Made by a program: the position numbers and the translations under genes
Part shown: piece after piece, positions 1 through 26,199 of the stretch
Layout: each line of letters starts with the position of its first letter
Position numbering within the stretch: the stretch's first letter is position 1
The notes under the pieces: model-generated
Seen by the model: the letters and a program-made list of their open reading frames with translations, nothing else
Database searches by the model: none
Told to the model about the DNA's origin: nothing
Source: Ancylonema sp.
Taxonomy: Eukaryota
DNA length: 64,000 nt
Reading direction: 5' to 3'
Assembly (NCBI GenBank): GCA_050230475.1
Contig: JBFLGF010000151.1
Location: 1 to 64,000 of the forward strand

Positions 1-2141
1 ACTACGTCCCGGCGGCACGCCAGGTGGGCGTCTACGCTAGCGGCCTACACCTACACCATCATCTACAGGAAGGGAGCAGCCAATGGCTAGACGGATGCGC
101 TGTCCCGGAGGACAGACCACGGGCCCCCCCCCTCCCCTCCCTCCCCATCATTCCCCAGCCCCATGCAGAGCCCCTCTTGCACACCCCCTACCTGGTCGGA
201 ACAGCAGTCATGGTGTCCCCCCCCGATCCGCTCCTTCCGGAGATCGCAGCAGCCCAGGCGTGGGATCCTGCGCTGGCAGCTACCATCTCTACGATCCTAG
301 GGAGGCCCGGCGGGGAGTCAAAACCCGCATTGCCAGGTGGCCGCCCTTCGGGCAGGTCGGACGATCAGTTTGCCTTCCAGAATGGCCTACTCTACCACCA
401 GGGGCGCAGCCAAATTCCCCCTACAGCAGCAGCCCTCATCCTGAAGATCTTGCAGCAGTATCACGACAGCCCCATGGCAAGGCACTACGGCGTGGCGCGG
501 ACGCAGGCCCTGGTGGGGCAATACTTCAAGTGGCAGGGGCTGGCTACAGGTGTCGAGGCCTACGTGAAGAGTCGTGACGCATGCCAGCGAAACAAGGTGG
601 TGCGACACGCGCCCTATGGGCTCCTGAACCCCCTGCCTATCCCCGATAAACCTTGGTGCAGCGTGTCCCTGGGATTGGATCACGGATCTGCCGCCGAGTC
701 ACTACCACACGACGCAATTCTCGTGGTCGTGGATCGCCTCACCAAACATGCAATCTTCATCCCCACCACCAAATCTATGCCGGCGCCTGATGTCGCGGCG
801 GCGCTATTCCTCTAGCATGTGGTCAGGGTTCATGGGGTGCCCTCAACCCTCGTGAGTGATCGGGATCCCATCTTCACATCCCACTTCTCTAGGGGAGGGG
901 CTGCTGGAGCTGATGGGGATTCATGCCAACCGGTCGTCCGCCTTCCATCCCCGACAAAGCAGCTGAATTGAATCCGGCTGAATTCAACACTGGAGCAGTA
1001 TCTTCGCATGTATTGCGACTACCAGCAGGACGACTGGGCCAGCCTCCTGGGGATGGCCGAGTTTTCCTACAACAAATCCAAACACTCGGCTACCACCATG
1101 ACCCCGTTCTACGTGAACTACGGGTACTATCCCCAGATGTCCCTGCTCCCTCCATCCCCATCCTCCAGCACCCCAGCCGCGGACTCGTACGTGCAGCGAC
1201 TCCGCGAGGCGCAAGTCAATCTTCAACTTCAACGGGAGCTCCTAAAAGCTAGGAAAGCGATGGAGCTCTCCGCGAATCGGCGTCGTCGCCCGGCACCAAA
1301 CTAGTGCCAGGCCAGAAAGTGTGGCTGCTTCGTCGGCACATCTCCACCACGCGTCCGTCGTCCAAATTGGATGTTCGTTGCCTTGGGCCCTATCCAATCA
1401 TCGGGCCCATCGGGAGATCTGCTTTCAAGCTGCTGCTGCCACCGTCAATGAAGATCCATCCGGTCTTCCATGTCAGCCTGCTAGAGCTGCACGTGGCGAA
1501 CACATTCCCGGGCCGTGTCGTGCCCCCGCCCTTGCCCACTCAGGTGGATGGCCTTCCCGAGTTCGAGGTTAACAAGATCCGACTCCAAGTTTCGGCGCCG
1601 GAAGGCTGTTCTACCTCGTGGATTGGGTCGGCTACAACCAATCGGAGCAATCCTGGGAACCCGCTGCCAACTTGGCTCATGCCACGGTGGCAGTCCAGGA
1701 ATTTCATACCCGCTATCCATTTCACCCGGGCCCAGTTTAGATTTTTTGCCACTACACTTTTTTGTCATATTATATCTAGACATTTGTCATTTCGTCCCCG
1801 TAGTCTCCTCTTCTCCTTTTCCGGGGAGGGGTACTGTTAGGACCACTCCCTATAGGCACTAGTGCTTCTCTAGTGAGTGCTCCTACCCCGCACTAGTGTG
1901 CTTCTAGACTAGTGTTGTTATATCTAGTGCTCTCTCTCTATATCGAGTGCTCGTGTTCTCCCATATGAGTGTTGCCTAGTCCTCACCTCACTTTCACTAC
2001 CTATATGTAGCACATAGGAACGACCACCTTATGGCCGTTCCTAACAACTCATGTAATCACCAACACCTAGTACTACTCATTTCCCATTTTAGTACTTGTT
2101 GTTTGATGCTTGTCTATCCTATCAATTCAAGCATCCTTACA
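1..2141 (+). mobile_element. Ty3/Gypsy chromovirus, 3' part (end of RNase H, integrase, chromodomain, PPT, 3' LTR); degenerate
   Basis: Across frames: DALSRR; integrase Zn region (HDSP..HYG, CQRNK), core (VVVDRLTK, VSDRDP, AEFSYN), GPY, IHPVFHVSLL; chromodomain (EFEVNKI...YLVDWVGY..SEQSWEP..NL) at ~1558-1720. PPT GGGGAGGGG at 1823-1831. Frameshifts and stops present. Confidence 0.93.
1835..2141 (+). repeat. 3' LTR of the chromovirus (TGTTAGGACCAC...CCTTACA)
   Basis: Begins TG just after the PPT and ends CA where the minus-strand RNase H of the next element is cut. Homologous to LTRs at 16665-17020 and 18712-19028. Confidence 0.88.
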
Positions 2142-3289
2142 CACTCCCCTTCGAAAGACGAGTAGTTCTGCTCCGCTGCATTGCATGACCGCGAGGCAAA
2201 GCAAACAAGGTACTCTACACCGTCATCGCCCGCTTGACTTAGGATTGCCCCCATTCCGCGCTGACTCCAATCTGTAGTGAGTATGAAGGGGTTGTAGGGG
2301 TTCGGCAACTTGAGCACAGCCGCGCTGCACAGCTGCTCCTTGAGCTCCCCAACCGCATCCGCTTGCGCCTTGCCCCACTGGACGGTCCGTCTTCATCAGC
2401 GCATTGAGGGGGAAGGCGATGGTACTGAAGTGCGGCACGAATTTGCGGTAGTACGAGAAAAGGCCCAATGCTGCCCTTAGTCCTGACAGATCTGTGGGGG
2501 ATGGCAATTCCCTCACCGCTGCTATCTTGTCTTGCTGGGGCTCCAACTTGTCGGCTGAGATGCGATGCCCCAGCAGAAAGTCAATGCTATCTGCTCCAAA
2601 AACACATTTCTCCGGGTGCACCTTCAGACCCGCCTCTCGCAGCCGCTGGAAGACCATGCTCAGGTGTTGCACAAGTTCCTCCACGTTGCGCGACCAGATG
2701 ACGATGTCGTCAATGTAGCACCGACAAAAAGGTAAGTCAGCACCTGATCCATGAGTCTCTGAAAGTATGGAGAGGCATTCTTGAGTCCAAAAGGGACCAC
2801 AAACCACTCCCATAAAATTCGATTGGCCCCCCAAAAGGCTGTCTTGTCACACCGATCCTCCTCTCTGACTGGCATCTGATGGTACCCACTGCGCAGATCC
2901 AGCTTGGAGAAGATGGTAGCCCCCCCCATCTGGTTAAAGATGTCCTCAATCCCTAGCAGGGGGTATCGGTCCAATGTAGTCTCCATGTTGAGGGGGCGGT
3001 AGTCCCCACACTGCCGGAAGTCAGTGTAATTCCCCTCTGCGTCCTTCTTGCGCAACCACTGTGGCCGATGCGTTCGCCGATTGATTTGATCGCTGTATGA
3101 ATCCCAGCGTCTCCAGTTTCCTACACTGCGCCTCGACAAAGTCCCACTCCACTTGACCCAATTTTTGAGGGGGGGTCTCAAAATGGCTTGATTGGAATTC
3201 AGGTTTATCTGCATTGGTCCCCCCTTGAAGTCATCAGACTTGATGTCCTCAAGGGAGAAGGCAAACCTGTCCACGTTGTCGTCCAACAT
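2142..3289 (-). pseudogene. Gypsy reverse transcriptase and N-terminal RNase H
   Basis: DYRPLN, DRYPL, FSKLDLRSGYHQ, KTAF, PFGLKNA, YIDDIVIWS, LGLFSYYRKFV; RNase H PFILTTDWS..GMGAILSQ...QNYSSFEGEC. Confidence 0.95.
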
Positions 3290-3659
3290 GGCCAGGACTC
3301 GTGCCTGGTCCCTCTCCTAAAGGCTGCTTCCGATGTTGAATCTTGTCGGATGCTTGTCTCTCTGAGGGGGACTTCGTACTCTCCCCCCCTCCGCCTCAGG
3401 CTCTAACACCCTAGGGTTTTGAGGAGACCCAAATTTTTCTTCTGAGGCCAGGAGGGCGGCCACCACCACTTGGGCAGCCTTACGCTGAAGTCCTCCTGGA
3501 GTTTGGAACATGGATGGCTCCGCAGCGACCATTTCCCTGAGTTCGCCACATAGTTGATGGCTGCGTACGCTGGATGCATTCCCCCCCCCCAGATGGCTGA
3601 GTAGGCAATGCTGGGTGGGGTGAGATTCCTATGCCTGACTGGCCATGTAGCATTATTGC

Positions 3660-4630
3660 CCCCAACCAGCGCATGGTAGTGCCATCCAAAGCACCCAAGC
3701 GCATTCGATCCTCGTCGGACACCCCCACTCACTGCCGCTGTGTCTCCCAGCGCGTAGCCCAGGAGCAGCTCCTTCTCCTTATCATCCGGTTCCTCCCACA
3801 CGTTTGCGTCCGTGTTGAACACCTCACCCTCGCCAGGTGTGCCGTTTTCCTGTGGCTTGTAGGCGTTGGAGTGAAGGTATGACACCACCGTTGGCATGCA
3901 TAACCTGACACCCCCCTCAAGGTTGTGTGAAGCAACGGGGAATTTGTCTGAGTGTCCTGGCATGGTGGGGATGTGATAGCCCTTGAGAATTGTGGTCAAG
4001 GGTGGGGAATGGGAGATGAGTGTTGGCAGCGTGGCTAAGATTGCAGGTTGCAGCATGTTGGTCGAGAAGAGTCTGACGCGATGCGCTGCTGCACCCAGAT
4101 CTCCTGCATCCACCACCACTGGAGCACCCACAAAAGCCTGGACCAGTTCTCCGGATTTCTTGACAGCTATGGTAAGTTGCTCCCCTGGGTAGGTGTTCTC
4201 CAGGATGTAGACCAGGGGTGCAGCCTGATCTCGTTGTTGGAAGAAGTTGATAATGCGCACCAGATCGTAAAAGTACTTGAATCTGGGATCCATGGCACCA
4301 CGCTGTCGTCCAGCGTGGCTCACACTTTGGCACTCCCAGCTCCCCTCCAGCAGATCCACAGGCCCGTTGTGTGTTGGTTTTGTCTCAAAATTGATGTTGA
4401 ACATTGCGCGACGTTCTGCGGCAGCCGTTTGTCGAATGCGTTGATGGCTGCGTCTGAAAGGAGAGTCGGGTATTGTTTCTGAAGGGACTGAAGCGTAGCA
4501 CGTGCAATCTTCCTGCTGATTGGGTCCTTGTCGGCATATGTGTAACAGCGCACCTTGTATCCTGCTGCCAGAGTTGTTCGCAGTACCCCCAGCCCCACAC
4601 CTCCGAATAACTCCATCACATGCAGCCCAT
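3660..4630 (-). pseudogene. Cytosine-5 DNA methyltransferase domain within retrotransposon pol
   Basis: Motif I VMELFGGVG (FxGxG, ~4590-4625); motif IV DLLEGSWECQSVS (Cys codon 4330-4332); motif VI YILENT (~4192-4200); motif VIII AHRVRLFSTN (~4060-4085); motif X-like RMRLG-ALDGTTMRWLG (~3665-3720). Canonical order; frameshifts near 4385 and 3720. Confidence 0.88.
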
Positions 4631-5099
4631 CTTGCATGCACAGCGCACTGAACTGACGTGTCGCTGTGTTGATGGGGGAAGCACCCTCAATCACACCTCC
4701 TAGCCAAGATGATGACGGCAAAATGGGAGCAAGGGCAAGAGGGGTAATTGCAGCCAACCTATCCGCGGCATTTTCCCTTCGCGTCAGGTCGCGCACCCTC
4801 ACCTCCTTTTGCTTCTCTACCATGTCCTCTGCCTCACATGCTTGCGCCAAGCTGCTCAGCTGATATGCTGCCAGCTGTAAGGGAGAAGTGTGATATCCCC
4901 ATTCCTCGTCGGGCGGGATCGTGTTGTCGGCATCTTGAACGTCTTGAAGATCTGCTGCACTGCTGAAAAGACCTTCGAAGCAGGCGTAGGCCACAACTGG
5001 TGGCGTAGATGTGTGGCATGGGGCTGAGATAGCATTAGTATGTAGCCCACCCTCCCCATCGCTCCAGCGAAAGGTAAACTTCTCGGTGTAAGCGTCGTA

Positions 5100-5410
5100 C
5101 GCCCCCTTTACTGCCGTGACGAACTCCATCCCAAGAATCACGTCGTATGCTGTGGTGTCGACCACAGTTGCATGAAGTTCCACCACGCACAGCTTGTCAG
5201 TTCCTCTTCCTAGCGTGAATTTAAGCTTATTTTTGGTGACGCCCAGCGGCATCTCGATGGCCCCACTGGCAGTAACAAACTCCACTCCTCGTCGGAGCGC
5301 TTGAGAGTGTATCTGTATAGCAGCAGCGAATTTCTTACTGGGCATCACTTTTGAGGCTCCGGTGTCAAGGATACTCTCTTTTGGCACATAGCCCTCCACG
5401 TCTAAGATGC
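5100..5410 (-). pseudogene. Retroviral-type aspartic protease domain
   Basis: ILDTGAS catalytic motif and YDVILGMEF, in the same ORF (4320-5498) as methyltransferase motif I. Confidence 0.9.
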
Positions 5411-5528
5411 CGTCTTGGTTGCATATGTAGACGGGTGTCGAGTGCACTCGAGTTCGATCTGCTTCTGCTATAGCCGGGACCAGCACCTCGCGCTCCACGG
5501 GAAAGTGTTGTTGAGGGAAATGCCGTTC

Positions 5529-7223
5529 TTAGTCGGTGGCCTTTCTCCAAAGGCTGGCTGCTAATTCACCCACCAGATGCTGTAAGTTTCTTGTTGCATC
5601 GCGCAGGTGCGCCACCGTCTGCAACGGCGTCTCCATTAGCAACTCCTCCTGATCTCCCATAGGCGGTTCAGGGAAAAGCGACGTGGGCGGGTATTGTAGA
5701 TCCGTGGTGCCTGGCTCCAAAGTGGACGGCGGAAGACCATGCGGAAAAGACTGCGGCAGTCTCTCTTTGTAGGCATACTGATCTGGCACTCCAGGCACCT
5801 CTGTTGTAGCTGCTGGTTCAGGAAGGGTGGTTAACGGGTCAGCTTGTCGCCGTTCTGTAGCGTTGACCACTGTTGGTAGTTCTGATGCTACAGATGGAGA
5901 GAAATGCACTCGTCGTGCTGGATTTTGCTCTGCGGACTCCCTCGCTTGTCGAGTAGGCACCGAGGGTCGTGTTGACCTCCGCTGCATCATCGCTCGAGCC
6001 GCACGATGGTATGTCAAAGCCATGCCCTGGAATTGGTAATTAGAGCTAGTGTACTCCGAAGCCTTGATCCGCTTCCTGCTGTTGTTGACATTCATCGCGG
6101 TCTGTCTCCTCTTCAGCAAATCGGTAGGCAGGAGTTCTGGGTGTGTAGCCCAGCATTGTGCCTCCATATGCCCTGGCTTCTTGCACGCTGAACAGACCGC
6201 ACCATTGGTTTTATGTGCAGCCAGGCTCTCCAATGGAATTGTAGGCGTACGTGCTGGTGGTGGTGGTCCAGGAAGTCCGCCACGAGGTAACTCAGGACAG
6301 TTTCTGATGTGACCTATCTTCTTGCATTGATTGCACTCCCTCTGTGATCCGTTCTGCTGCCCAGGCGTTCTTTGATGTCCCTCCCACCTAACTTGTCCTC
6401 CATCGGGCGAGGGGGCGCTTTAGGGGGAAATGGCGTTGGCTGCCCTATCTCAGTGTCATGCGGGTCGGGGGTAAGGCCTGCAGCACGCAGCTCCGTCTCA
6501 AACTCCAGCAGAAAGGCCTCGCTATCTTGCGCCGTTTTCAGTAGTTCATCCTTGTCCACCAGGGGATCTCCCTTCTTGAAGCGGCGCATGTCTTCCCTCA
6601 TCATGGCTCCTCTTGTTGCCTTTCTGATGTGAGAGGAATGTATTCCCGCAGATTGAGCGCCAGCCCACGTGTCGTCATCAAACCAGCGGTAAGGAGCGGC
6701 TCAGCCACCTCATCGATTCGGTCGGCCATCTTGACCAGCGACTCCTTCGGCTGCGCCCGAAAAGCGTAAAGGTCCTCGAAGAAGCGAGCTGAGGCCATCT
6801 GAAATGCCGCTCGAATGATGGCTAGAAATTCTTCTAAATCAGCTGGCTCGGCAATCGGTTCTGGCAGAAAATGTGGTCGCGTAGGCATACCCGCCTGATT
6901 GACCAAGTACACACGGTTCAAGTTGAACACCGCTTTCTCCATGTAATAATTTCTCCAGACCGCTCGGTCCTCTTCTCTGGCCATAGCTTCCAGAATGTAG
7001 GGGTTGTCGTCTTTGGTCCAACTCCACTGTCCATGAAGAGGTCCAACAGCCGACGTGCCTATCCACCAAGTAGGTGGTAGAGAGTATCCATGTAGTCATG
7101 TTGGGCTACTCCCCCCCCAAGGTGACGTTGCGGATCATTCATGATTGCTCTCCAGCCCACCTGTGCGTCCTTGATGAAATTGCGTTGTGCATTACCCCCA
7201 TCTCCTGTGTATATCGTAGTCAT
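5529..7223 (-). pseudogene. gag-like region with CCHC zinc knuckle
   Basis: CSACKKPGHMEAQC knuckle. Fragmented ORFs start MTTIYTGDGGNAQRNFIKDAQVGW. The TAA at 5529-5531 is in frame with the downstream protease ORF. Confidence 0.8.
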
Positions 7224-7255
7224 TCTTTTTTTTAACGAAAAACTTAACAGGTCTT

Positions 7256-8193
7256 TGTAAGTTTCCTATGGCAAGGCAATGCCGTTGGACTGAACGTAAT
7301 GTGTTCGAAACAGTGTTTGTGAAATCTTTAAGAATTCCCACCTAATTCAAGGAACTCAATTGCAAGAATATCACCAGCCGAATTCACTTCACAAATGCTT
7401 ATTACACGATAGTTCGAGTCAAGATTTGTTCAGCGGTTCCCTCCCGAGGTCTACAAAGACCTGTTAAGGTCTAAAGAGCACCTCTCTCGGCTATATAGGC
7501 TCTGCCTCTCCTCTGGGCATGTCTGACCAGCATCATTATTGCGGCACCGCGAAGCGGCTGCACCGACATCTAGGCTAATGCATTCCTAGCCAAGTATTAC
7601 GATGTTCTTGTCATGTACATCAATATTGCAGCTAGCTAGGTACGTACAATGCATGACTATCACGAGACTGATCTGATCTGATCGATAGCATTGTTGGCAG
7701 CCGCCAGAGCTTGCGGCTGATACATCAAAAGGACAGTGTATATACAAGTAGTTTGTTTCTACTGTAGTAACGTAATCTAGACGCTAAGTCGCGAAGATTA
7801 GTCCTCTTGCAGTTCACTGGTCAGTATCCCAGAGTGCGTCACTCACTGATCAGTAACGTGCTGCCTAACATGTCTTCTGCGAGAGTAGCGAACTAGGTGC
7901 CGCCAAATGCGGAACACATTAATCGTGCGATATCTAACTAACCCTTAGTTATACCATCGAAACTTAACGTACGATTGTAAATGCCGGCACGTGCCAAATA
8001 AAAGAAGTACATTCACGTCTCATTGTGAAAGTGTTCCGTGTATCGCTTATTACCGATTCCTCCGTTATAATTGTGTGACTCTGCTCACTTGCTAGTTCAC
8101 ACGCTATAATCAGAATATAGGCGCGCGATCGTTTAAAGGATGACAAAGTTGAAGCCGTTCAATTCGGGCCCGTGTTATGCACGAGTGCCGACA
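7256..8193 (-). repeat. 5' LTR / leader ('module A') of the DNMT-Gypsy element
   Basis: Starts TGTCGGCAC on the minus strand; TATA-like TATATAG at 7491-7497. Homologous stretches at 15870-16638, 18220-18405, 19440-19842 and 52800-53345. Confidence 0.72.
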
Positions 8194-9470
8194 CAACTGC
8201 TGGTCTCACACGTTTCCCAAAAAAAAGGGCTCAACGTAGTGCACGAGGCGGAGGTAAAGTTGATAGAGGCAAGATTGGAGGCAAGCCATCGACGGACACA
8301 ATTTGCTACTATTGCGGAAAATGAGGCCACTACATGAGAAATTGCAAATATGTCAAAGAGGAGTGTCGGTGCTGCAAGCGAAATGGACATTTGGAGGTGA
8401 TATGTAGGGAGGAAAGTAGAGGGGCACGCAGTTCATGTGTCAATGAGCGAGAAGAATCACTCTTCTTGGTTAGAGAGATCATGTTGACTACGACAGAAGA
8501 GAAAATCTCAGGCGAGGAGGGGCTGGCCGATAATGGCGCTTCTCGTCACCTCCGCACCGACATCGATTCTTTCACAACGGTCACTTCCCTTCCTAGGCAT
8601 TACCGGATAAATCAAGTCGATGAAGTGATGAAAGTGGCACAGTGGGGAATAGTAATACTCGGAAATTATTTAGTTACAAGGAAAACAAAACTTCGACCCG
8701 GTGAAACTATCTAAGTGCCCAACCTACGACTTAACCCCTTGTCGATGCAACGTCTATGATGAACTAGTTTCATTCCCGTCTACAATGAAATACCCAGCAA
8801 AGTCTTCATCGAGAAGCAGCTGCCAATGGAACTCTCGAGCATATTGTTATTTTGTCGAAAAGTCCACTCTACGGAGCGACTTTAGATTCCAAAATTGTGC
8901 TACCAAGTCCACACGAGCAACACGTGCCAAAGGTTATGGTTGGTGAGATGTCGTGAAATTCCGTCAGCCATACTAGGCTGCGGAATACTTTACTAGAGAA
9001 TAATCAAATCAACTCAGATTATCTCGTTGCATAAATGCAACCATCAACATCGCGATAATACACTTTGCACAAACTCAAGTGCCAAAATGGAATGCACCAA
9101 TATGAATCAGTTAAAATGAGATCGGAGTCCATACAAATATCAAACTAGATCTATGGTAATGGATGTTGAACAAACAATGCGGTTTTAGTCTAACAACTAA
9201 CTTAACCTTTCAATGTCATGTGAATGACTATTGGACTTCCTAACTTCTTGACGTTTTCATATACCACTAGTCAACATAGCATGCATACTTATTACAACGA
9301 ACCTCGCTCTAAGGCTATTAGTGATTGCCCTAGCTTCATGTCCATGTCTCTTCTATCAACGTTTGGGGCACAAGGGACAAGTAGCTCTCACTAGATTCAT
9401 CAGTGAGAACATGGTAGATGCATTGGACAATTGTGTTCGCGGTATAATTGGTGACAGTCCTCTATGTCAA
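8194..9470 (+). mobile_element. Ty1/Copia relic (gag zinc knuckles, protease, GAG-pre-integrase)
   Basis: CYYCGK*GHYMRNC and CRCCKRNGHLEVIC knuckles; LADNGASRH protease resembling WICDSGADYH of the 36-42 kb Copia; QRLGH motif at ~9355-9372. Confidence 0.8.
8954..9338. mobile_element. Probable solo LTR inserted in the Copia relic
   Basis: TGAA...TTCA ends with near-TSD TGTCG/TGTCC. Removing it rejoins GEMS-MSLL(H)QRLGH. Confidence 0.6.
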
Positions 9471-10149
9471 CTTCCCAATATGACTTCGGGCCAAGTCCCC
9501 CTCCACTCCAACTCGCAACCCTCCACGTGCGAAACTTGGCGGTTTGCTACATGCGCATGTAGCAAATCGGGCGAAAATGATTGGTGCGGAAGATGCAGCC
9601 AGGCGTAAGGACGCAACTCGGAGGCTGGTAGCAGCGGTGGGGCGCAACCTTCCAGCCCTAAATCAGTCATCCTCTCGGCTAGGAGATGAGGTCGAAGGGG
9701 CTACCCCTATGAACACCTCCATGCGCCACTCTATACCTACTTTATATCAGAACGGCCTCCACGTCATGTATACGTTTGTAGGAGTTGCGTGCAGGGTGCT
9801 CCAAACAGCACTGACTGCTATATTTTTAGTGCGGCTCTACACCTACTCCGAGAGAGACCGCATCTCCAAGTGGATGGTGAGGACGAGGTTGTGGAGTCTA
9901 CAGGCACAGTTTCCTATGGTTGTCAGGAATATCACACGTGGACGTAACCAGCGTACGTTCGGAACTTATAATTTGCACTAGACGACAATATAATGACATT
10001 TGGTCATAGAAACCGTGCACGACCTTACACTCTCACTCTATTACACTGTGACACTTATCGTGTCGGAGTGAGTCTTGGTGAAGTCTAAACGTTATCTTTG
10101 CATATTTTTGCATTGTTATCGCGGTACTTGCATCTTGACAGGCGTTGCT

Positions 10150-10617
10150 TATTGACTCTGATTGCGGGTTGCTTAAGTGCTCATCATCAATTTTTGTCGT
10201 AGATCGAGCTTTCTTTGTGTTTCTGAGTATGACCCATACCACTGTCTCGTACACTCACATATAAAGACCCAAGCAAACCTCTTGCCTTGGGCCGATCTTG
10301 AACCAATTATTTTACACATGATGGTAGATGTGTATGAGTTGTGCACATGCATCCGATGGTGCATGATGTAGATGTGAGAGTGCGTGTGATTGTAGTTGCA
10401 CACATGGCATGGGTATGCATAAGTGTAGTGCATTGTATCACACATGCGGGATCGCACGTGTGATGCGGGTGTGATGTGTGGTGTGTTCACACGTGTGGGT
10501 TAACACAGTAACACTAGCGCTAACACATTCGTTAGTGCGGTGGCGCGTACTTATGTATTCGTTATAATGGTGATTTACACGTGTGTATGTGAGTAAACGA
10601 TGCTAGATAGCACGCCA
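10150..10617 (+). repeat. Diverged non-coding A+B derivative of the DNMT-Gypsy family
   Basis: CTTGCCTTGGG (A end) followed by B-like sequence ending GATGCTAGATAGCACGCCA; left border uncertain. Confidence 0.5.
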
Positions 10618-12032
10618 ATTCATATGGACTTTCTAGAATCATTCTCTAAATCTAAATCCACACGTATCCATCGCCTGAAACCTGATCCACAATTGTTTAT
10701 CACACGTGCTAAGTCTAGTCCGGCACGCATCCAATTTACTTAACAAAGTCATCAAATCCGACCTATTATCCCGGTGTCTATATCCCAGGAACCTAGTTTG
10801 AATAAACCAAGAAAACCGCCGGACAAGCATGTGACTCGTCAAGCTTGATTTCGGAATTGGTAAAGACTAGACTTCAAAACCCCTTCCATAAAATACTGTC
10901 CGGACCAAGAAACATGATTAAGTTTCGGAGGTTATCCCATAATCTAAATCCAATTAATGGAAATGTACGGGTTAAGAATAAGTTGCAAGTAATCGACTTG
11001 GTGACATGAGTGAATAATTTCCAAATACACTAAGACGCGCATGTGTCCCGGACGTGTATGCGCACGTGTACCTTGTAGCAGTCGGAATGTCAATTCCTTT
11101 ATACGGATTAACGGATTAACGCCACGTGACAGACTTTCAAAATTACGCCCTCGCTCCAACTTGAGACCGACATGTTTCATTCTATGTCGGCTATATTTCA
11201 TATAGGGGGTATTCTGTGAGAACGTTTAAATTGTAGTAAGATTGACAAGTCTCTTGTTCAGGCCAGGGGTTGTCCGGACTTGAGAATGCGCCACATGAAA
11301 GAGGAGAACGCAGCGTGCAAATAAGTACCAAATGAGAGGGCAGCAAAGAGTGTTGGTAGGAACCAGAAGCTAGCACTAAGAAGGAAGGCATGCGTTAGGG
11401 TGTGTGCTACAAGGCCCTTCGAACAGTGGACTTGCTCCCTTGTCATATTGCTTACCATTGATCCCGTATTTCCTTTTATTTCTACAACGTTGCTTGAGTG
11501 GCAGTTGTGCGGAATATATACTTTCTATCATGTAAGAGGCACATGAGTGCATTGACCATCAAGGAAAGTCTATATTTGTTTTCTCGCATCAAGGAAATTC
11601 GAAATTTGCGTCAACATCTTTTGTCCTCATGTTCCAAGGCACTTGCCCCTCCAAAGCTGCCGCACGAGTCATTAATGCTTCGAATCCATGTTCTCACACT
11701 CTATTGCTCATGTTGTGCTCCATAAATTGGTAAATTGCATGTTACATATGTGCCTCATGGGCCGAGCATGCATAAGCCCCCGATAGAACAAATATGCGTG
11801 CTTCTCGTAGTGCCTCCTCACAACATAATGTACATGCACTTGAGTATTGATATGCCTATCTACTGGACTCCTATCTGCATAAAATCTGTATCTGATGCTC
11901 GTGTTGTTACCCAACACACATGACCGACCCTCATTGTTGGAAAATGACACAACATGGAGGCTTTGCGACATAGCAAGGGCAACAATTTACCTTCACATGA
12001 ATTCTCATTACATGAATACCCTCTTCTTCAGG

Positions 12033-14076
12033 TTATCCCAAACGTTGCCTTGTCCGCCTGTTGTTTGCATCAGTCCCGTCGAGCTGACTCCAACTAGAAC
12101 CTCGGCCTCGTGCAGGTCCAACCCCTTCGTCACTGCTTGTGCCTGGAGCAACACCGGCTAGGAACCTCAATAATTCGGCTTGCAACGTGGGGCAGACCTG
12201 CGCTAGGTAGTCGAATCCATCTGTTTTCATCACAGCTGAGCGACCACAACAGAGTGTGTCAGAAGTTACACATAGAGGAAGCACTTTCAGTTATATAACT
12301 ACAAGATCACCATATCGTTATTATATATCAAAAATATTAGTGGTGCAAAATAATACCCCACACGAAGCACACCTATGCATCAGTCCCCAATAGTCAAATC
12401 CTACTCTTCCCCTGGCGATGGATGAGGAGATATAAATAATGATGTTATATACAATATAGAACAGCGGTTCCACATCAGCTCCATGCATGGCCTCCTGAGC
12501 AATCCCAGCATTCTGCCCACCTCTCAAATTCTCTGCCGCAAACTGAAGACAAACTTTCTTCAATTGTGCTGCGTGGTGCTGTTCCGCCAGAGCCATAGTC
12601 GTTGACACAGTCTCAACACTCACTTCCTCGCAGAGTTTTGACTCACACATCAGCCTCAACCTGTCCAAACCATATCTGTCAGCCGCAGCGAGCAAGTGCT
12701 GTGCCATGAGGACAGATGCGCCAACCGCTGCTGAACCTGTGACATCTGCTGGCTCTGGCAGCGCCTCTGTGTAGATGAAATGTAACATGGCCTGTGAGGC
12801 AGACAGACAATCCAAACAGGCAGCTCGTCAGCCAGAGCTGGCTGTTGACCAGGTACCATACAAGCCGAGCCCTTCCCCTGATTTTAAATTGAAGAAACAT
12901 GATGCTAACAAGATGCAATCGATTTTGCAAGAATATCGACTCCCAAACGCCATCACTTGCGATGCTGGAGCAGGCGAGCAGCAGGACACAACAGGATCAG
13001 ATGCGAGGACTTCACCTTGAAAACGGGATGTTTCATGTCTTCGATAACCAGCTTCGAATTTGTCGACTTCAACGGCCCAAAAAGTTGAGCCTTGAATACA
13101 GGAGATCGAGCTGCGAGCACTAGCTTATGCGCTTGAAATACCTCCCCATCTACTTCAAATGTCACATCCGTGTCCTCTAAGCTGTCCAGCAACGCTCCGA
13201 AATGAACTCCCATGTCAGGAGGAGGCACTTCGATACTGAACGGCTTAGGACCCTTAGTTGCTTGAACAACAACTCCGACGGTGCACTGGATGGAAAGGCT
13301 GTCACTGCTCAAATAGTCGGAGGTCTCCAACATGGCTCTTCTGAAAAATCGTTTGTAACCCCTGAGACAACGAACACAACAACAGAGAACAAGAACTGTA
13401 AGCAACCTTATTTCGGATTCACCTGCGATTGTTCGCGAGATAAGAGACTGCGTGGAAAAGGCAGTTTCTACTAGTCAAAGCTATGCTTGAATCGCATGAC
13501 CATACCATGCCATGTCATGTGATATCCCTTCACGTCATTGAGACGTTCCAAGGGGTACAGCTCGACAGTATCAACACGAATCGCATGAAAAATCTTGTAC
13601 TGAGAATTCATTTGCGCCCATCCACAAAACTTGGCCGCATCCAAAGTCCGGAACCAGATAGGATATATCACTCACCACATGCTCCCTCTGTATTTCAAAG
13701 TGTATGGTCCACTTTCCAACGACCTGTCGAAGTGGCTATGGACCTTGTGCTTTCCTTTACCGCTCTGATCAAGCAAAGATAACTCAAACAGAGCCCTCAC
13801 ATCCGTTCCCTCACTCGCAAGGGCGATGAAGACGGATACGTACTGAGAGTTATCTTCCGCATTCTTTCCATCCGGATAAAAATATATGGCCCACTGGTAA
13901 CCACCAACTGTGAATGGTTCACTGGCCATGTACTTCCCCACTCCCATCCCTTTCGCTAAGCTATACCCTTCAATATTGAAATGATGTGAAGCGTTGACCG
14001 TCTCAGTAGTATTTTGAGACCTAGTCGGGGCACTTGCACCAAGCCCCTCGATTTTTACAGTCGGCGTCTTAGCCAT
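12033..14076 (-). CDS. BPM: BTB/POZ and MATH domain protein (CUL3 adaptor); exons 13676-14076, 13016-13361, 12521-12791, 12033-12235
   Basis: MATH ([44 protein letters not shown]), BTB ([34 protein letters not shown]). GT-AG introns join in frame. Confidence 0.95.
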
Positions 14077-15199
14077 CGAGTTGACTCACGAAGTACCTTT
14101 CTTTTTTGGATTCAGCAGACCTGCAGTGAATCCCGATGATTTAATAGTTCTATGTATTGTATATCCATACGTGCGATTTTCGTGTGTCGTTGTTCAGGTT
14201 GCCACCCGTGGAAGCAGATACTGATTCTCATGAAGTTGTGATATCTGCAAGTCCCGTCCGTAGGGTTTGCTGTTGCAAAGCTTCAACGAAGGCTAAGCGC
14301 GAGGAAATGATATATGGATTGTTGCCTGTAGTACCGGGCGTCTAGAGACTTACCGGCCGTCCAGGTGTCCACCAACCGCTCGAATTCTAAACGCGTACGG
14401 TAACGTGGTACCGTTCGGAAGGAAATGTAGTAAAAATCCAAGTGATGCACCGCCAAAGTGAGCCAAGGAATCGAACGAATGAAAGTAAAAGTGATGTGCA
14501 TCGTGCAGCGTGTATATTGTGGGAAGGATTTGGACGTCTGATATGCTAATATTGTCCCGTTTTAATCACGGTCAAAGTGTATGCGTTTGAAGTCGTCAAT
14601 TAAATACCCGCACTAGTCAGAAATCAGTCGACTGACCGTGCCATTTGTCAGCGACTAGCCTGACAAATTCAATTTATTACCATTCATGATTGAAGCTTCT
14701 ATCTCATTGAGTGCATTTTGATGGATTAAACCCCGAAAATCTAATGACCTGTCGGAACGCCGTTCAATAGTTTTCCCAGACGTCTTCCAAACCGTTTGGG
14801 TTCCGAACGCGTTCGGAAAAGTTGATAGCAATCCGAGTGGAACTCTGTCATATGGATCACGCTTGCGAAGAGATGCCGGCGTTGGTCGATGCTATTTATT
14901 ACGGTTGACGGCGTCCTGTGAGCCAGTTCTCACGCTGTTCACACGGTCACGTTTCCTTTCGTCAAATTCATTAACGGACAATTATTTGTCTTTCTTTCTC
15001 ACCAATCACCGTACGAAAAGCCTACAGTTTCTAAGACATCAATCCCAATATTTCGTCATAACGCATAATCTGATTGACTGATACAGATGAACGAACAGTC
15101 TAAGGGGCTACCAACCCCTCAAGCACACCCGACACCGGGCAGCACACTGGACACCGGACGGCAGCATAAAAGAGAACCGGACATTCAGAAACGTTAAGA

Positions 15200-15510: not shown

Positions 15511-15641
15511 ACACCATCATCCATCTTGGGTTATGGCACTTGTCTGACAATAATCGATCGTGTGCTTACATGGTTATTTATTGGGGTAAATTGGTTAATG
15601 TGCCTACACAATGGAATGGTGTGGGTGCAGATATTTGCGTA

Positions 15642-16638
15642 TGTCGTGCCGTTTAACATCGTGCCTCAGTCACACGTGTAACACATTCGTTATAGCGACC
15701 AGTGTTGTAATGGGTATAAAACACGTGCGAATTATGTGTCATCTCATCACATGGAATGTCGACATATGGAATCATGACCTAGTCGAGGTCCGCTACACAC
15801 ACGTGCACGATAAAAATGAACATTGCACAAACATGAAGCAAGTCTACCACATGTCAAATATTATTTTATAGTCTACCTAAGGCAAGGTGTTGTTGTTGGT
15901 CTAATCGTAGAGTGTTTGAATCTTTTGAGTTGTATAGTTGTATTGCACACCCGATTCACAAAGTTGGAAATGCGAGCCGAACACAAATAATGTACACAAG
16001 GAATGCGGTCAATTACTTGGCGAGTCCCGAGGTGTGATAAGACCGATACAGGTCTGATCACAAATGTTACAAAATGTATAGAACTCAGCTAGTGAATTAT
16101 GCTAGTAACACGGAAGCTGCCGATCCTGCTGTATCGACTCATGGCGCCGACCGATTTAGCTAGCCGACTTACTGGCTAATCCACTCATAGACCAGCACGC
16201 TAGGAAATATATAATTACATATGTCCTATCGTAAATATCTAGAGCTAAGAAGACGTCAAACTGGGTACTATAGTAGTGTTGTTCGCAGCTAGTGGCCAGT
16301 ACCCACATAAGTTACGAAGTGGCCTTTACTGCCTTGTTGCATCCGTGCAACATTACGCTAGCTTACGGCGCCTTTAACGCGGTGTGAATATTGCTGGTCG
16401 CTGACTAAGTAACTTGTACGCTTATTCTACAACCGCATGGTAATGCAGTCCGTCCTTAGTGCCGTTGAATGTGCCGTAGGTAGCGAAACAATCATACTCT
16501 TATGTTGAGTGTGTGTAATGTTAAGTGTGGCGAATATCCGTTGATCCAAGCCCGTCGGCACCCCAATATCAATATAGAGTGCTTAGCTTCGTTCGCCTAA
16601 AGCTGTCTACTCATTGGTCGACGGAATAGTGTCCGACC
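15642..16638 (-). mobile_element. Non-coding A+B derivative (solo-LTR-like) of the DNMT-Gypsy family
   Basis: 15642-15900 is an inverted homologue of 19810-20070. 15870-16638 is colinear with 7260-8193 (TCCCGAGGT..AAGACC; AGTG(T)CCGAC end). No clear TSD. Confidence 0.7.
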
Positions 16639-18219: not shown

Positions 18220-19088
18220 TGGTGCTTTGTATTTGAGTTCGGTTGGCTTACAGCCTATGTGAATTTGATCCATAAGCATTCCGTGTGATTTGATTCCAGT
18301 TATCGATTGATTGAGTATTGCACAATTATACACTTTACAAGCGTCGGGCACTCTACGTCTAGACCGAAGGCACCGCCATGCCATTGGTAGACTTGATAAG
18401 ACCTATCAAGCTTATTGAATTCTGAATTAAGAATTCCACCAAAAAAAATGAGCGTTGTGAATACAAGTAATGAAAAGTAGTACACAGGAGACAAAGGCAA
18501 TGAGGAGCGTGTCTTTATTAAAGATGCACAGATCGGATGGAGGACTCTTCTCAACGACCCCACCAGGTCCCTCCTGAGCGGAATTGCTCAATACGAATCC
18601 CTTGAATCTCTGGGACCAGGGCTAAGCCAAGCTGGACGGCTCCTCGATAATTTCATCGAGAGGTGGGACTGCCGATTTGAGACCAACTGCTACTATGAGG
18701 AGGCTACTATGTGTTAGGACCACTACCTAGAGTCACCACTGCTTCTCTAATGAGTGTGCCCAACCCGCACTTGTGTGCTCTTCGACTAGAGTTCAATTTT
18801 TCTGTTATCGAGTGTGCTCTACTTTATCCTAGTTCTCCCATCAGAGTGTTCATCCTGGTTCATTTCCTAATTTGAGCTATATACTCGATAGGAGCATACT
18901 TTATTGTTGTTCCTATCAATTCATGTACTTGCCACGCATTTATTACTTTCATTCCCATTGAGTGTTGTCATGTGTGTGCTTATCTTTATTCTTAAGCTAT
19001 GACGCTTCTTCCCTCTAGCGTCATAACACTACGAGCGAAGCAAGCGGAGCCTTGCGGCGAACGTACTACAAGTCAAAGGAGGAATAAG
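18220..19088 (+). mobile_element. Second coding-type DNMT-Gypsy family fragment (leader end + gag N-terminus), split by a chromovirus solo LTR
   Basis: YTGDKGNEERVFIKDAQIGWRTLLNDP aligns to YTGDGGNAQRNFIKDAQVGWRAIMNDP at 7223. Leader GCCATGCCATTGGTAGACTTGATAAGACC matches 7250-7285 reversed. Confidence 0.8.
18712..19028 (+). mobile_element. Chromovirus solo LTR
   Basis: TGTTA...TAACA ends; 5-bp TSD CTATG/CTACG; homologous to 1835-2141. Confidence 0.9.
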
Positions 19089-19439: not shown

Positions 19440-20070
19440 AGATCTATCATAGCCATGCATTGTATCTAGTTGCAAAAGTGATGTACACGACGTAGTCACT
19501 AAAATACTTGGCTAAGAATGCAGAAGCAAGTATGCCGGTGTGGCGGCCAGCGAAGCGGCGCCGCAAAAAGATGCTAATCGGATAGGAGCTAGCGACTACA
19601 CATTCTGTAACTTTCGTACTCATACCTCAATAGGTCTTTGTACACCTCGGGAACAACTGCCCAGATTACCACCCAATTCTTTGTGTGATTTGTGTATGAG
19701 TTCGGCTGGCATTTTGACCCGATTACCATTATTTTTTGGACTTTATTACTGAAAATCTGTTAGTGTGTATTACCTTCTCATTTCATTTAAGCATCGGATA
19801 CTTTACATCCAAACCAAGGTCGAAGCCTTGCCCTAGGAAGACTATAAAATATGATTTGGCATGTCGTATACTTGTGTGATGTGTTTGCAATAACTTATGG
19901 TATCACGCACGTGTGTGTAGCGGACCTCTACTAGGTCATGATTCCATGTGTGTACATCCATGTGAAGAGATAGAAAGAAATTCACACGTGTGAAGTGCAT
20001 ATTACGACCAAAATCGTTACAACAAATGAATCGCACGTGAGAATATGACACGATGCTAGATAGCACGACA
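19440..20070 (+). mobile_element. Non-coding A+B derivative of the DNMT-Gypsy family
   Basis: AATACTTGGCTAAGAATGCA, GGTCTTTGTACACCTCGGG and GCCTTGCCCTAGGAAGACT match 7260-7600 reversed; ends GATGCTAGATAGCACGACA. Confidence 0.75.
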
Positions 20071-20590
20071 TATGGTATGGCATTCCGAGCCTCTATGCTG
20101 TCAGACTGTGGTAGAGGTCTCAATAGCGGCGGAGTAATCCTCCTCCACTCACAGGGGTCTCGGAGACTGTAATATTGTACGATTGAGGTACGGAGGGGAA
20201 TCTGGCGCGCGAGTCTAGTCACTGTTGCTTGGGCCCGGTTATAACTTTACTTGATTCTCATTGGAATTTATTGCAAATATCGATTGACGTGAATCACCTT
20301 TTCATTTCATTGAAGTATTGGATATTTTTCATTCCGACCAAGTTCGTTATGACAGTTGAATCGCACGTGAGACTATGACACGATGCTAGATAGCACGACA
20401 TATGGTATTGCATTCCGAGCGTCTATGCTGTGTGTGCTATGATTGTGGTAGAGGTCTCAATAGCGGCGTAGTAATCCTCCTCCAGTCACAGGGGTCTCGG
20501 AGACTGTAATATTGTACGATTGAGGTACGGAGGGGAATCTGGCGCGCGAATTTGAGTCTATTCACTGTTGCTTGGGCCCGGTTATAACTT
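20027..20590. repeat. Direct duplication with ~330-bp period (20027-20248 vs 20357-20590)
   Basis: Near-identical repeated block containing the B-module end and its flank. Confidence 0.85.
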
Positions 20591-20977: not shown

Positions 20978-23900
20978 ATGTCTCTGCCCGGTGAGAACAC
21001 GTTTGAAAATATTGAAAAGGAGAGCGAGTATGGATACGTCCGCAAGGTCAGCTGCCGTGAACTCCACCTCTGAATGTCTTACAGCGCCGATGGACCTCTC
21101 CATGGCAACTGGAACACTTTTTCTCGAGAACGTGCCATCTTTTGCCATTTCTGGTCCCAACCGGTTCTCTTCTGGTTCTGGTTCTGGTTCTGGTCCCCGT
21201 TTTAACATTAAGGAGCAAGTAGTGAAGTTGATGTTGAATGGATATGCGTACCTTGTGCATCACAAGAGAGGCATGCAATGCGTATTCAATTCGGAAGACC
21301 GGTCTTGATGAGAAGAACGGATGATGGTTTTGGTAGTTTCAAGCGAGTCTGATTTTTGCATCCTTGTGGTGTCCCGTCACACCGTGTGGCGACGTGGTCT
21401 CTCCAGGTTTCGGGACCCGTGGTTATTGGTGAGGGCATGGGCGGAGCTGCCATGTACGAACTCGTCCGTGTGGGTCACGACAAGCTTATCGGGGAAATCA
21501 TCCGACTTGAGGGAGACTCTGCCACAATTCAGGGTAAGCCTACAACGTTGAGGCCTTGATCGGAAGTCCCAGTCTTCCTGCCCCTCGGCCATCTCTTTGT
21601 CGTGAGTGATAGATTGCTCCTGCGTGGTTAAGATCAGGTAGAGAGACCTCGTCTCGTCAACGACCTCATTATAATGGAAAGCGATAATGCGGGATGATGT
21701 GACCCGTGTTCTTAGAAGTATAGGGGGGGTCAGGCATGGATTCGCTCTCGCACCCTCTGTCAGGGCCACTTCTCTATGGCACACGTGTATCTCTCCATGG
21801 GCTCCAGCTCCGTCGTTGCCAACGGCTCCTTTGTTTGCCTCGCTGGCGCAGTGTACGAGGAAACTGGGGGACTGACTGTGAATGATCCCATTCTGCGAAC
21901 ACACAAGGTATGGGAAGGATCATAAATTTTCACCTGAACCAGTAGAGGTTTCGCAGGAATGAGTAGATAGGAGGATGTCTTTGCCGATTTTTTTGTCTAG
22001 GATGTGAAGTAGGGTCCGTTGGGTTCCTGGAGCCCACCAGGCTTTCAAATCTGAATCGTTCAGGGTCGAGTCTCAAAGTCGAAAAAGTTGTCGTTTAGAG
22101 TGGTTCCAAATTGCGCACAAGCCTGTCCGAATCGAAAGGAAATGTGGTGGGCTTTAGATTTTGTCCATGGCAGAAATGGCATCCATGGATAGCCACATGG
22201 CACAGCTGGGTCTCCCTCTGGATTGGACCCAGACCTCCCCCCCCCCCCTGTCTCTTCTGTCCTTCCGTGTGTCAGCCTCTTTCCTGCGAGCTCGGCCCGG
22301 GCATCCTGAGCAACATCTTCGATGGAATCCAGCGGCCCCTGAAGGCCATTGCGATAGCCTCTGCCAGCGTGTACATCCCCCGCGGGGTGGCTGTGCCGGC
22401 GCTGGACCGCAAAGCCCTGTGGGAGTTCGAACCCACAGGACTGAGTGAGTAACACTGCAGCTGCGCGATGTACTCATTCTTGGTGGCTCGGTAGGGGGTG
22501 TGTGACGCCTGAACCTGGGGGTGGGGGTGGGGGTGGGGTTTGGGGCAGACCTGGGCGACATGCTGTCCGCTGGAGACGTGTACGCGGTACGACCGCCAGC
22601 AGTGGGCCTCCTGTCTCCCCCCTCCTCATTTCTGACGCACAGGATGGGGGTGTGGGGATGGGTCTGAGCAGAAGGTCCAGGAGAACAGTCTGATGACGCA
22701 GAAGATGTGCGCCCCCCCCCGCGCCATGGGCAAGATCTCCTACATTGCGCCCCCAGGGCAGTACACACTCACCGTACGCTGCCATCCAATCAGCCAATGC
22801 GCGTTGTAACCTGCCTCTGTCATCCGTCAAAAGAAGGTCGTGTTTATGGTTGTGGGGTTTGGGTTCAGGACACTGTGCTGGAGCTGGAGCTGAACGGTCA
22901 GACGAAGTCGTACACCATGCTTCAGACGTGGCCCGTGCGCACGCCCCGCCCCGTGGCCANAACATCTTCGACGGAATCCAGCGGCCCCTGAAGGCCATTG
23001 CCATCGCCTCTGCCAGCGTGTACATCCCCCGCGGGGTGGCTGTGCCGGCGCTGGACCGCAAAGCCCTGTGGGAGTTCGAACCCACGGGACTGAGTGAGGA
23101 CCACTGCAGCTGCGCGATGTACTCATTCTCGGTGGAGGGTGTGTGACGCCTGACCCTTGTGAGGGTGGGGTGTGGGGCAGACCTGGGCGACATGTTGTCT
23201 GCTGGAGACGTGTACGCGGTACGACCGCCACCACTGGGCCTCCCCTCTCCCCCCTCCCGCATTCTGACGCACGGGTTGGTGGTGGTGGTGGTGTGGGGGT
23301 GGGTGTGAGCAGAAGGTCCAGGAGAACAGTCTGATGACGCAGAAGATGTGCGCCCCCCCCCCGCGCCATGGGCAAGATCTCCTACATTGCGCCCCCGGGG
23401 CAGTACACACTCACCGTACGCAGCCACCCAATGAGCCAATGCGCCTCGCTCATCCGTCAAAGGAAGGTCGTGTTTACGGTGGTGGGGTTCGGGTTCAGGA
23501 CACTGTGCTGGAGCTGGAGCTGAACGGTCAGACGAAGTCGTACACCATGCTTCAGACGTGGCCCGTGCGCACGCCCCGCCCCGTGGCCAAGAAGCTCTCT
23601 GCGGACACGCCTCTGCTCACGGGGCAGCGCGTGCTGGACGCCCTCTTCCCTTCCGTCCTGGGCGGGACGTGCGCCATCCCGGGAGCGTTCGGGTGCGGCA
23701 AGACAGTCATCTCGCAGTCCCTGTCCAAGTACTCCAACTCCGACGGCGTGATCTACGTGGGGTGCGGGGAGCGCGGCAACGAGATGGCGGAAGTGTTGGC
23801 GGACTTCCCTCAGCTCACCATGACCCTCCCCGACGGCCGCGAGGAGAGCGTGATGAAGCGCACCACTCTGGTGGCCAACACCTCCAACATGCCCGTGGCG

Positions 23901-25154: not shown

Positions 25155-26199
25155 ATACATAGAAAAATGAGAGCGATGCTCGAATGCTCAAATGCATATT
25201 GGCTTGTAGGGGTGTGGAGGTGGAGTGGATGCGATGGTCATGCGGTCTTTTGTAGACCGAAAAGAGGCTCTGAGCGATATATGAAGGAGGCATATGGGGT
25301 TAAGGTTTTCCTCTGCTTTTCTCTCTAATCGTATCTCAGGTCAGTGAAGAAGGGTCAAGTCTTGGTACAACACAGATGCAAAGTAGGGGACTTTGATTAG
25401 GGTGCAATTGTATGTATCTTGTACTGGGGTGGGTCCTCTATGTGAGGTAACTTGTGCAAAAATATACGTTTTTGTCTTTCGTGACATGCGACTTTGGTCT
25501 CACCTGGGTTCTTTTCACTATGTGCAATCCTATGTTGGTGAGGTGAGTGCATCATGGCACGGCACTTTGTGGACTCCGATGTGTAGACCGTATTTCTCCT
25601 CCCTTTACACAAGTGTTGTGAAGTTCTACCAATGGTAGGTTGTACCTCGATGCCCATTCCTTTAACGATTGAGACGTGAGTTTCACGAATGTTTCGGTAT
25701 CTAAGCCTCTTAGTGTCGATTCACGTACAACCATTCATACTTCATTTTGCAGTTGAGTACATATGGGAGTAAGTCATTGCATGCACAGGAATCTTCATCA
25801 TTATGGAAGTCTGCAATTGGATGCAAACACAATGAACATTACAGTCCAAAACCCAAGCAAATTATGGATTGCAATCAGGCTAAAATATCAATCCGAAGCA
25901 ATCGTGTGTATAAAGGGGTGTATCACGCATCTAAGAGGTCTAAATGGGAATGTGTACCAGTTTGGAATTGGAATGGGTACCAGATGCATTCAATTGCTCT
26001 CAGGTTGAAACGCAGATTTTGCACACGTGGCATTCTACTTCCATATCGTGTTGACATTGAATTTGCGATCAAATTGGTACCATCGCCAAATAACCGAGCT
26101 AATGATGTACCCCGTATAACAAACTCCGTTTAGCGATTAGGCGAATTTGTGCCTAATCTAAGTTACAAATATCCATGTTAAACCTTCTCATCGAGGGTN

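Follow-up and report, generated by a model that had tools for sequence, protein, structure and literature searches.

What does a cytosine-5 (C5) DNA methyltransferase (DNMT) do inside a Ty3/Gypsy retrotransposon, and with which of the element's proteins is it made? The question is raised by positions 2142–8190, minus strand, of a 64,000-nucleotide stretch of Ancylonema sp. DNA (contig JBFLGF010000151.1 of assembly GCA_050230475.1, positions 1 to 64,000; hereafter the window), where a decayed Gypsy element carries such a domain between its protease (PR) and its reverse transcriptase (RT). We compared this copy with its relatives and found that the methyltransferase ends a first open reading frame (ORF1) encoding Gag and protease, and that RT, RNase H, integrase and a PHD finger form a second one (ORF2).

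From about 8190 down to 2142, the minus strand holds a noncoding 5′ part, Gag, an aspartic protease, the C5 methyltransferase, RT and a partial RNase H, and all the motifs named in the original prediction, a reading of the sequence alone, were found there. ILDTGAS of the protease (5372–5352) and ELFGGVG of motif I (4613–4593) share one ORF of 402 amino acids (4320–5528). The next frame carries GSWECQ (4344–4327), ILENTYP (4206–4186), AHRVRLF (4086–4066) and motif IX (3777–3757), while motif X (MRWLGA, 3674–3657) lies beyond one more frame change; YIDD of RT follows at 2717–2706, and RNase H reaches down to 2142. Pfam searches with the window ORFs identified aspartyl protease (PF13975, E 2.5e-7; PF13650, E 3.1e-7), RVT_1 (E 6e-13 and 1.7e-11), RT_RNaseH_2 (E 6e-24) and DNA_methylase (PF00145, E 4.1e-7), the last of these, a check that had been proposed with the prediction, exceeding its curated cut-off. 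The copy contains several frameshifts and stops, including frame changes in the methyltransferase near 4385, 3725 and 3650, and is dead, as had been recognized. The features of the element, of two further remnants of its family and of the repeat that cuts it are as follows.

7215–8190, minus strand: 5′ noncoding part, probably with a terminal repeat, outer end approximate (depth peak at 7201–7600, drop in 8001–8400)
5532–7214, minus strand: Gag remains, frameshifted, with two Cys/His knuckle-like motifs (6335–6297 and 6194–6153); tblastn with the intact ORF1s P0001, P0002 and P0007, 41–63% identity
5118–5399, minus strand: aspartic protease (DTG), from PF13975 and PF13650
3632–4631, minus strand: DNMT3-like C5 methyltransferase domain, motifs I-IV-VI-VIII-IX-X unpermuted, motif IV GSWECQ; from PF00145, 59–71% identity to eight relatives, and DNMT3 as best profile and fold match
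3629–3631, minus strand: TAG matching the family-wide end of ORF1 (Gag-PR-DNMT), from the ORF1 ends of relatives
3533–3628, minus strand: spacer between the ORF1 stop and the conserved ORF2 Met, with a C-rich stretch and a G-run, hairpin-capable by folding
2142–3532, minus strand: ORF2 remains, with the conserved Met at 3532, a linker, RT (about 3049–2574) and RNase H (2377–2142, cut); from Pfam and relatives at 61–90% identity
1835–2141, plus strand: 3′ long terminal repeat (LTR) of a different, nested Ty3/Gypsy element, splitting the RNase H; TG...CA ends, a purine tract before 1835 and a solo-like copy at 18712 that matches at 82%
9482–9930, plus strand: second, older remnant, with the linker preceding the methyltransferase and the motif I region; tblastn 34–45% to ORF1 relatives, E down to 5e-21
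18448–18711, plus strand: third remnant, a Gag N terminus truncated by an LTR from the family of the nested element; tblastn 36–55% to ORF1 N termini, E down to 2e-21

The layout of the family was read from its relatives. When proteins of 572–2000 amino acids were searched with the methyltransferase part, 8 of 4340 candidates matched, at 59–71% identity; all 8 contained the protease, the methyltransferase region and its WEC motif, and all 8 lacked RT. The intact ORF1s are about 1200 amino acids long and read Gag-CCHC-protease-methyltransferase, with the stop right past motif X. Setting aside fragments short of motif X and frameshifted tails (P0007, P0008, P0013 and P0038), ORF1 ended 7–9 residues beyond motif X in 32 of the 33 sequences with a motif X pattern, representing 13 of 14 independent clusters and extending to about 41% identity. 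The TAG at 3631–3629 of the window corresponds to this end and is variant-free among the rows of aligned contigs listed (14 further rows stand outside the list); the stop at 3319–3317 is private to the window copy.

The RT search returned 52 matches, 42 of them of the methyltransferase family. Eight full-length ORF2 relatives (966–1091 amino acids, 76–83% identical to the window RT piece) read RT-RNase H-integrase-PHD finger, with no protease, and their order of RT, RNase H and DDE integrase is that of Ty3/Gypsy. By Pfam, the window ORFs and the intact relatives together also supply the Ty3/Gypsy set of Gag with zinc knuckle, aspartic protease, RT and RNase H; the zf-CCHC match is weak in the window Gag and above or near the cut-off in the relatives. 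Among the 80 family proteins, 32 contained the methyltransferase and 42 the RT, and none contained both. The two ORFs were paired through contigs of equal size (P0006/P0062, 7714; P0028/P0056, 7530), and in 9 of the 13 ORF2s aligned, a Met lies at or beside the position of window 3532, three of the others starting further downstream and one having Ile. The placement between protease and RT had thus been read correctly from the window, but the idea that the enzyme is packaged with pol needs revision: it closes the Gag-protease ORF at a common stop, and RT opens a separate one.

A trivial explanation would be that the window copy captured a fragment of a host DNMT3 once, or neutrally, or that the assembly is chimeric. 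The copy is indeed heavily decayed, and no aligned contig spans the whole stretch. The same Gag-PR-DNMT order, however, was found in 8 independent clusters from other assemblies, with the domain present in 8 of 8 close relatives, and a profile search of 1.84 billion representatives retrieved 1567 related proteins with E≤0.001. Of the two outcomes that the original prediction had named as refuting it, a missing C5 profile match and absence of the domain from other family members, neither was obtained. Across the seven ORF1 proteins compared, mean identity was 70% in the methyltransferase, 61% in the protease, 51% in the Gag N terminus and 49–50% in the linkers, a proxy for selection only. When contigs of four sequencing runs were aligned to window positions 1–12000, depth was high across the domain: summed contig depth in run X1, which is not a copy number, was 7e4 to 9e5 over 2001–8000 and 230–270 at 10801–12000. 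This excess shows that the element belongs to a highly repeated family. On all these grounds we rejected a single capture or chimera as extremely improbable. Metagenome searches with the family alignment confirmed no methyltransferase-element loci in contigs of the JGI (0 of 248 stretches) or in IMG/VR (0 of 79); with the ORF2 alignment they gave generic Gypsy loci only, at 29–42% identity, with a methyltransferase in 0 of 79.

An N-terminal extension of one ORF2 (P0051) fits the –1 frame of the ORF1 end at 10 of 12 codons, compared with 4 of 10 codons in the +1 frame (the best of 200 shuffles reached 0.71), and in the frameshifted tail of an ORF1 (P0013), the –1 frame is open for 25 codons, of which 22 fit (best shuffle, 0.82). 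Where it could be tested, ORF2 thus likely lies in the –1 frame relative to ORF1. It is likely reached by –1 recoding or a splice near the ORF1 stop, or from its own start at the conserved Met; the residues before the Met look conserved, which argues for an entry upstream of it. Only two slippery heptamers were found, at 4777 and 3537, and neither is placed to join the ORFs. In-frame readthrough of the stop was also considered, the TAG being 96 bases from the ORF2 Met and in frame with it in the window copy, and was ranked low because most differing contigs carry single-base indels in the spacer and P0051 puts ORF2 in –1.

Is the domain a plausible enzyme? Searched against the PDB, the family profile returned DNMT3C, 3B and 3A first (E 3e-6), the top nine matches being DNMT3C or 3B. 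For the domain of P0002, an alignment of 8 sequences gave a model with a predicted local distance difference test (pLDDT) score of 40, and 77 sequences were used instead, raising it to 96.8. Foldseek placed DNMT3A, 3C and 3B at the top for this model (E 4e-17, template-modeling (TM) score 0.68–0.71), and all 32 listed rows were DNMT3. By sequence and predicted fold, DNMT3 is therefore the best match, with the C5 motifs I, IV (Cys), VI (EN), VIII (RxR), IX and X all in unpermuted order. The donor of the methyltransferase is not fixed by this comparison, because a phage enzyme also matches the model (E 4.6e-16, TM 0.61); a mostly viral Atlas cluster scored 0.95.

Conservation was counted over the best 150 of the 1567 proteins together with the 8 first matches. 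The catalytic Cys, whose conservation the original prediction had singled out for checking, was present in 136 of 139 aligned relatives, the motif VI Glu in 142 of 144 and the two motif VIII Arg in 139 of 142 and 140 of 141, in sequences down to 30% identity. The canonical motif IV dipeptide of C5 methyltransferases is PC. The EC noted for the window copy is real, its Glu aligning with the Pro of DNMT3 GGSPC, but it is not rare: of the 139 relatives, 89 have Glu ahead of the catalytic Cys, 38 have Pro and 12 have some other residue. Since EC is the commonest state among these relatives, it is neither a defect of the copy nor a unique variant, and with the Cys so widely kept we rejected the idea of a dead enzyme peculiar to the window. 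In a 122-row tree, Pro and Glu require 13 changes by parsimony, at least 5 of them forced by well-supported branches. Judged from these alignments, EC is the common state of the clade and is interchangeable with PC.

On a modest balance of probability, we favor the following reading: the window holds a decayed copy of a highly repeated Ty3/Gypsy element, with a Gag-PR-DNMT3 ORF1 and an RT-RNase H-integrase-PHD ORF2, whose enzyme is likely active, would be packed into the particle and would methylate the new complementary DNA (cDNA). Since the methyltransferase is fused to Gag and not to RT, it would be made in Gag-like amounts, packed together with Gag and freed by the element's protease. The cDNA would then be methylated by the time it arrives, probably at CG if SymbioDIRS-Dnmt3 is a guide, and the new insertion would either resemble host chromatin or fall silent immediately; the integrase, through its PHD finger, would read histone tails to pick the site. 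Self-methylation of the cDNA is an inference that we borrow from de Mendoza 2018 (PMC5890265).

Several observations weigh against this reading. On the layout, P0174 is an exception that continues for 46 residues past motif X, and both protein searches covered proteins of up to 2000 amino acids, among which a full fusion of about 2300 could not appear. On the entry to ORF2, the evidence for the –1 frame comes from a single ORF2 extension and a single frameshifted ORF1 tail, both of them proteins without DNA; no canonical slippery heptamer precedes the stop in the window copy; and the hairpin past the ORF1 stop is weak (–25.9 kcal/mol, z –1.77, matched by 9 of 200 shuffles). On the enzyme, EC replaces the canonical dipeptide in the window and in 8 of 8 close relatives, and the observed/expected CpG ratio of the window copy (0.59–0.71) does not single it out from a Copia (0.69) and a nested Gypsy (0.77) that lack the domain, so that CpG depletion was not discriminating as a trace of self-methylation. 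Finally, according to the available text of the 2018 study, the sole Gypsy enzyme tested, that of Klebsormidium nitens, gave no methylation in yeast (PMC5890265).

The points on the enzyme and the yeast result, together with a motif I that reads FGGVGLG in the family and not FxGxG, would also fit a domain that binds DNA or flips cytosine with little or no methyl transfer. In the particle, such a domain would have a structural role, protect DNA or act as a decoy, which would suit expression at the level of Gag and the loss of the proline of PC. We consider it quite unlikely, given that the Cys, the Glu and both Arg are near-invariant over about 140 sequences and that the exchange of Pro and Glu on at least five occasions is better explained by a change that a functioning enzyme tolerates than by an enzyme that died and revived several times.

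The conserved stop, which parts the methyltransferase from RT, bears on where an active enzyme would work. The argument of de Mendoza for action in cis is built on a shared ORF with RT and does not directly apply here, because the stop precedes RT. The enzyme could instead act in trans, its targets being integrated copies, rival elements or the chromatin of the host. Uncoupled from reverse transcription by the stop, it would be made in bulk from unspliced RNA, while a spliced RNA would skip it and yield the replication enzymes. The precedent is Ogre (Tat clade), which, in the available text of its description, likewise has a Gag-PR ORF1 and an RT-RNase H-integrase ORF2 with a short spacer between them, and which splices out the region between the two; Ogre differs from the family studied here in lacking a methyltransferase and in having a demonstrated intron as its spacer, whereas ours is known from the sequence alone (PMC6317226). 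The TAG-G at the stop is compatible with a 3′ splice site, but the bases before TAG are not pyrimidine-rich, the fusion to Gag favors packaging, and in the other two subclades described below the domain lies inside Pol. We regard action in trans as unlikely, if worth keeping in view, and retain methylation of the element's own cDNA as the preferred reading.

Elements of this class are already published, as the original prediction had stated. In KnitGypsy-Dnmt3 of K. nitens, according to the available text, the Pol ORF contains the DNMT along with RT and RNase H, the repeats are DIRS-like and Ka/Ks is <0.2; the authors call its inactivity in yeast inconclusive, while SymbioDIRS-Dnmt3 domains methylate CG de novo in yeast (PMC5890265). 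Both KnitGypsy-Dnmt3 and the window family are Ty3/Gypsy elements of streptophyte algae with an unpermuted Dnmt3-related domain kept across copies. Unlike in KnitGypsy-Dnmt3, the DNMT of the window family ends the Gag-PR ORF at a common stop. The window family works like KnitGypsy-Dnmt3, but we do not class it as a member because DNMT and RT share an ORF in 0 of the 80 family proteins. The available text on KnitGypsy-Dnmt3 mentions neither a PHD finger nor EC, though its Fig. 4c and Supplementary Fig. 13a may show both, and "phd" and "protease" have no occurrences in the available part of its peer-review file.

Other retrotransposons with a C5 methyltransferase of their own are SymbioDIRS-Dnmt3, SymbioLINE-Dnmt and the EpiLTRs, the last of which add a chromatin reader (PMC5890265; 10.64898/2026.05.21.726589). 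As far as the available text of these sources goes, SymbioDIRS-Dnmt3 and SymbioLINE-Dnmt differ from the window family in their DIRS or LINE backbones (PMC5890265), and EpiLTRs in that their DNMT is sister to DNMT4 and is accompanied by an adenine methyltransferase and by a chromodomain in place of the PHD finger (10.64898/2026.05.21.726589). The 2026 preprint, in the same portion of its text, still gives the streptophyte Gypsy-DNMT3 as the known case and adds the EpiLTRs (10.64898/2026.05.21.726589). Fusions of PHD fingers to retrotransposons are known in general (10.1101/2021.11.30.470311, available text). The available parts of PMC6338049, PMC12344493 and PMC11244446 contain nothing on the window family, and the literature searched, which took in few subscription papers, held no description of this family, of EC-type retrotransposon DNMTs or of a Gypsy element with both DNMT and PHD finger.

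Beyond the family itself, 20 matches of the best 150 in the profile search were looked up by name; the named members came from Closterium and Mesostigma viride, and no K. nitens names occurred among these 20 distant matches. The relatives from these two algae (P0109, P0110, P0112, P0254, P0153) share with the window family the WEC motif and an RT on the same branch, and in the Closterium relatives the methyltransferase likewise follows Gag and protease and precedes RT. In P0110, P0254, P0211 and P0253, by contrast, methyltransferase and RT share one ORF, and in P0211 and P0253, which reach past the integrase, no PHD finger was called, unlike in the window family. Among 29 long matches chosen for Pfam analysis, 17 had RNase H upstream of the methyltransferase, 16 had a PHD finger after the integrase and 4 had the methyltransferase upstream of RT in one ORF.

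We inferred an RT tree from 46 of 138 rows, rooted at the midpoint and with a comparison set of generic Gypsy elements, without close kin that lack the domain. The window family, the Closterium-type elements and those with RNase H-DNMT-integrase formed one branch (100/99), and each its own branch within it (100/100, 100/100 and 100/97); the methyltransferase occupies three positions across this one RT branch, and the PHD finger occurs in two subclades. A single capture followed by moves of the domain is plausible on this tree, and not more than plausible because of the midpoint root and the generic comparison set. One further protein, P0186, has its methyltransferase before the protease and an unrelated RT, and falls outside on a long branch of the tree, which suggests a second capture. 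P0119 adds a G-patch domain, and P0103 and P0199 are long proteins in which the methyltransferase domain is the sole Pfam match.

The outer limits of the window copy differ in kind. The element ends at 2142 because the 3′ LTR (1835–2141) of a plus-strand Gypsy element sits there; this is an insertion point that splits the RNase H, and nothing in the 64-kb window closely matches the integrase or PHD finger of the relatives. Near 8190, the 5′ limit is known only approximately: high depth stops in the 8001–8400 bin, and a contig of unique flank begins at 8118. The 5′ end is the only end present, and uneven depth over 7201–8400 fits an LTR and DIRS-like split repeats alike; the 3′ end lies outside the window, within which no primer-binding site or TG...CA end of the element was identified. 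The segment 7442–7660 resembles 19449–19652 in two pieces, at 69% and 90%. Rfam gave no match in 1800–8400, and the window contains no tRNA gene.

The splitting element occupies 1–2141 (plus strand) with its 3′ half: integrase zinc finger and SH3 by Pfam, a chromodomain-like stretch seen by eye, the purine tract and the LTR. By depth, its family is even more repeated than the methyltransferase family, and an LTR of it also cuts the Gag remnant at 18712. A Copia-like fragment (8325–8946, plus strand) flanks the methyltransferase element.

The likely host is a zygnematophyte alga whose relatives occur on glacier ice. It is placed there because the V-ATPase subunit A of the window groups with those of Mesotaenium and Closterium at an SH-like approximate likelihood-ratio test (SH-aLRT) support of 92, in a weak tree of 30 of the 120 listed matches with Spirogloea elsewhere. 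The unique flanks have near-exact matches in runs X1 and X2 and related ones, with many differences, in the glacier and ice metagenomes X3 and X6. The V-ATPase gene itself (plus strand, from 23268–24518 onward) lies within 22477–27650. Partial copies of it are duplicated upstream, an 8-bp tandem array sits in an intron, and its 3′ part is involved in a tandem duplication of 1.5 kb.

Elsewhere, the window contains a host MATH-BTB (BPM-like) gene with introns by Pfam (12300–14085, minus strand) and long inverted arms at 15640–16081 and 19596–20072, about 4 kb apart and 70–89% complementary, that enclose nested Gypsy remnants and may be the termini of a DNA transposon or terminal repeats in opposite orientation. 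Segmental duplications (29448–35453 and 42274–52717, offset by about 8 and 14 kb, 85–100% identity) include an unannotated ORF of 439 amino acids (29448–30764). There is also a decayed Copia element (36813–41770, minus strand) and a PPR-repeat-like ORF, recognized by eye (55469–57379, minus strand), split by an 11-bp tandem array (55760–55990). Three N bases suggest assembly joins.

A retrotransposon-borne methyltransferase is not in itself new, and this kind of element has been described in another alga; new is the layout, which puts the methyltransferase on the capsid-protease protein and not on the copying enzyme. Whether such enzymes act on their own cDNA has been a question since 2018, the one tested Gypsy enzyme having been silent in yeast (PMC5890265, available text). 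With the enzyme on Gag and a stop before RT, action in cis and in trans predict different outcomes, and the family offers many intact natural domains, a confident structure model and natural EC/PC pairs for enzymology. One RT branch with three domain positions, the PHD finger in two subclades and 1567 related proteins suggest that methyltransferase Gypsys are much wider in green algae than the single published K. nitens family. We also put forward, tentatively and as a possibility about which we remain doubtful, that these elements form an old, large and mostly undescribed Gypsy clade of green algae and mosses, in which an active EC-type DNMT3 writer and an integrase PHD reader would be a self-contained counterpart of the animal DNMT3 and ADD module and the writer would have moved among three positions. 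In the glacier-associated family, enzyme made at Gag level, many copies per particle, would then yield fully premethylated cDNA or would shape the methylome of the host.

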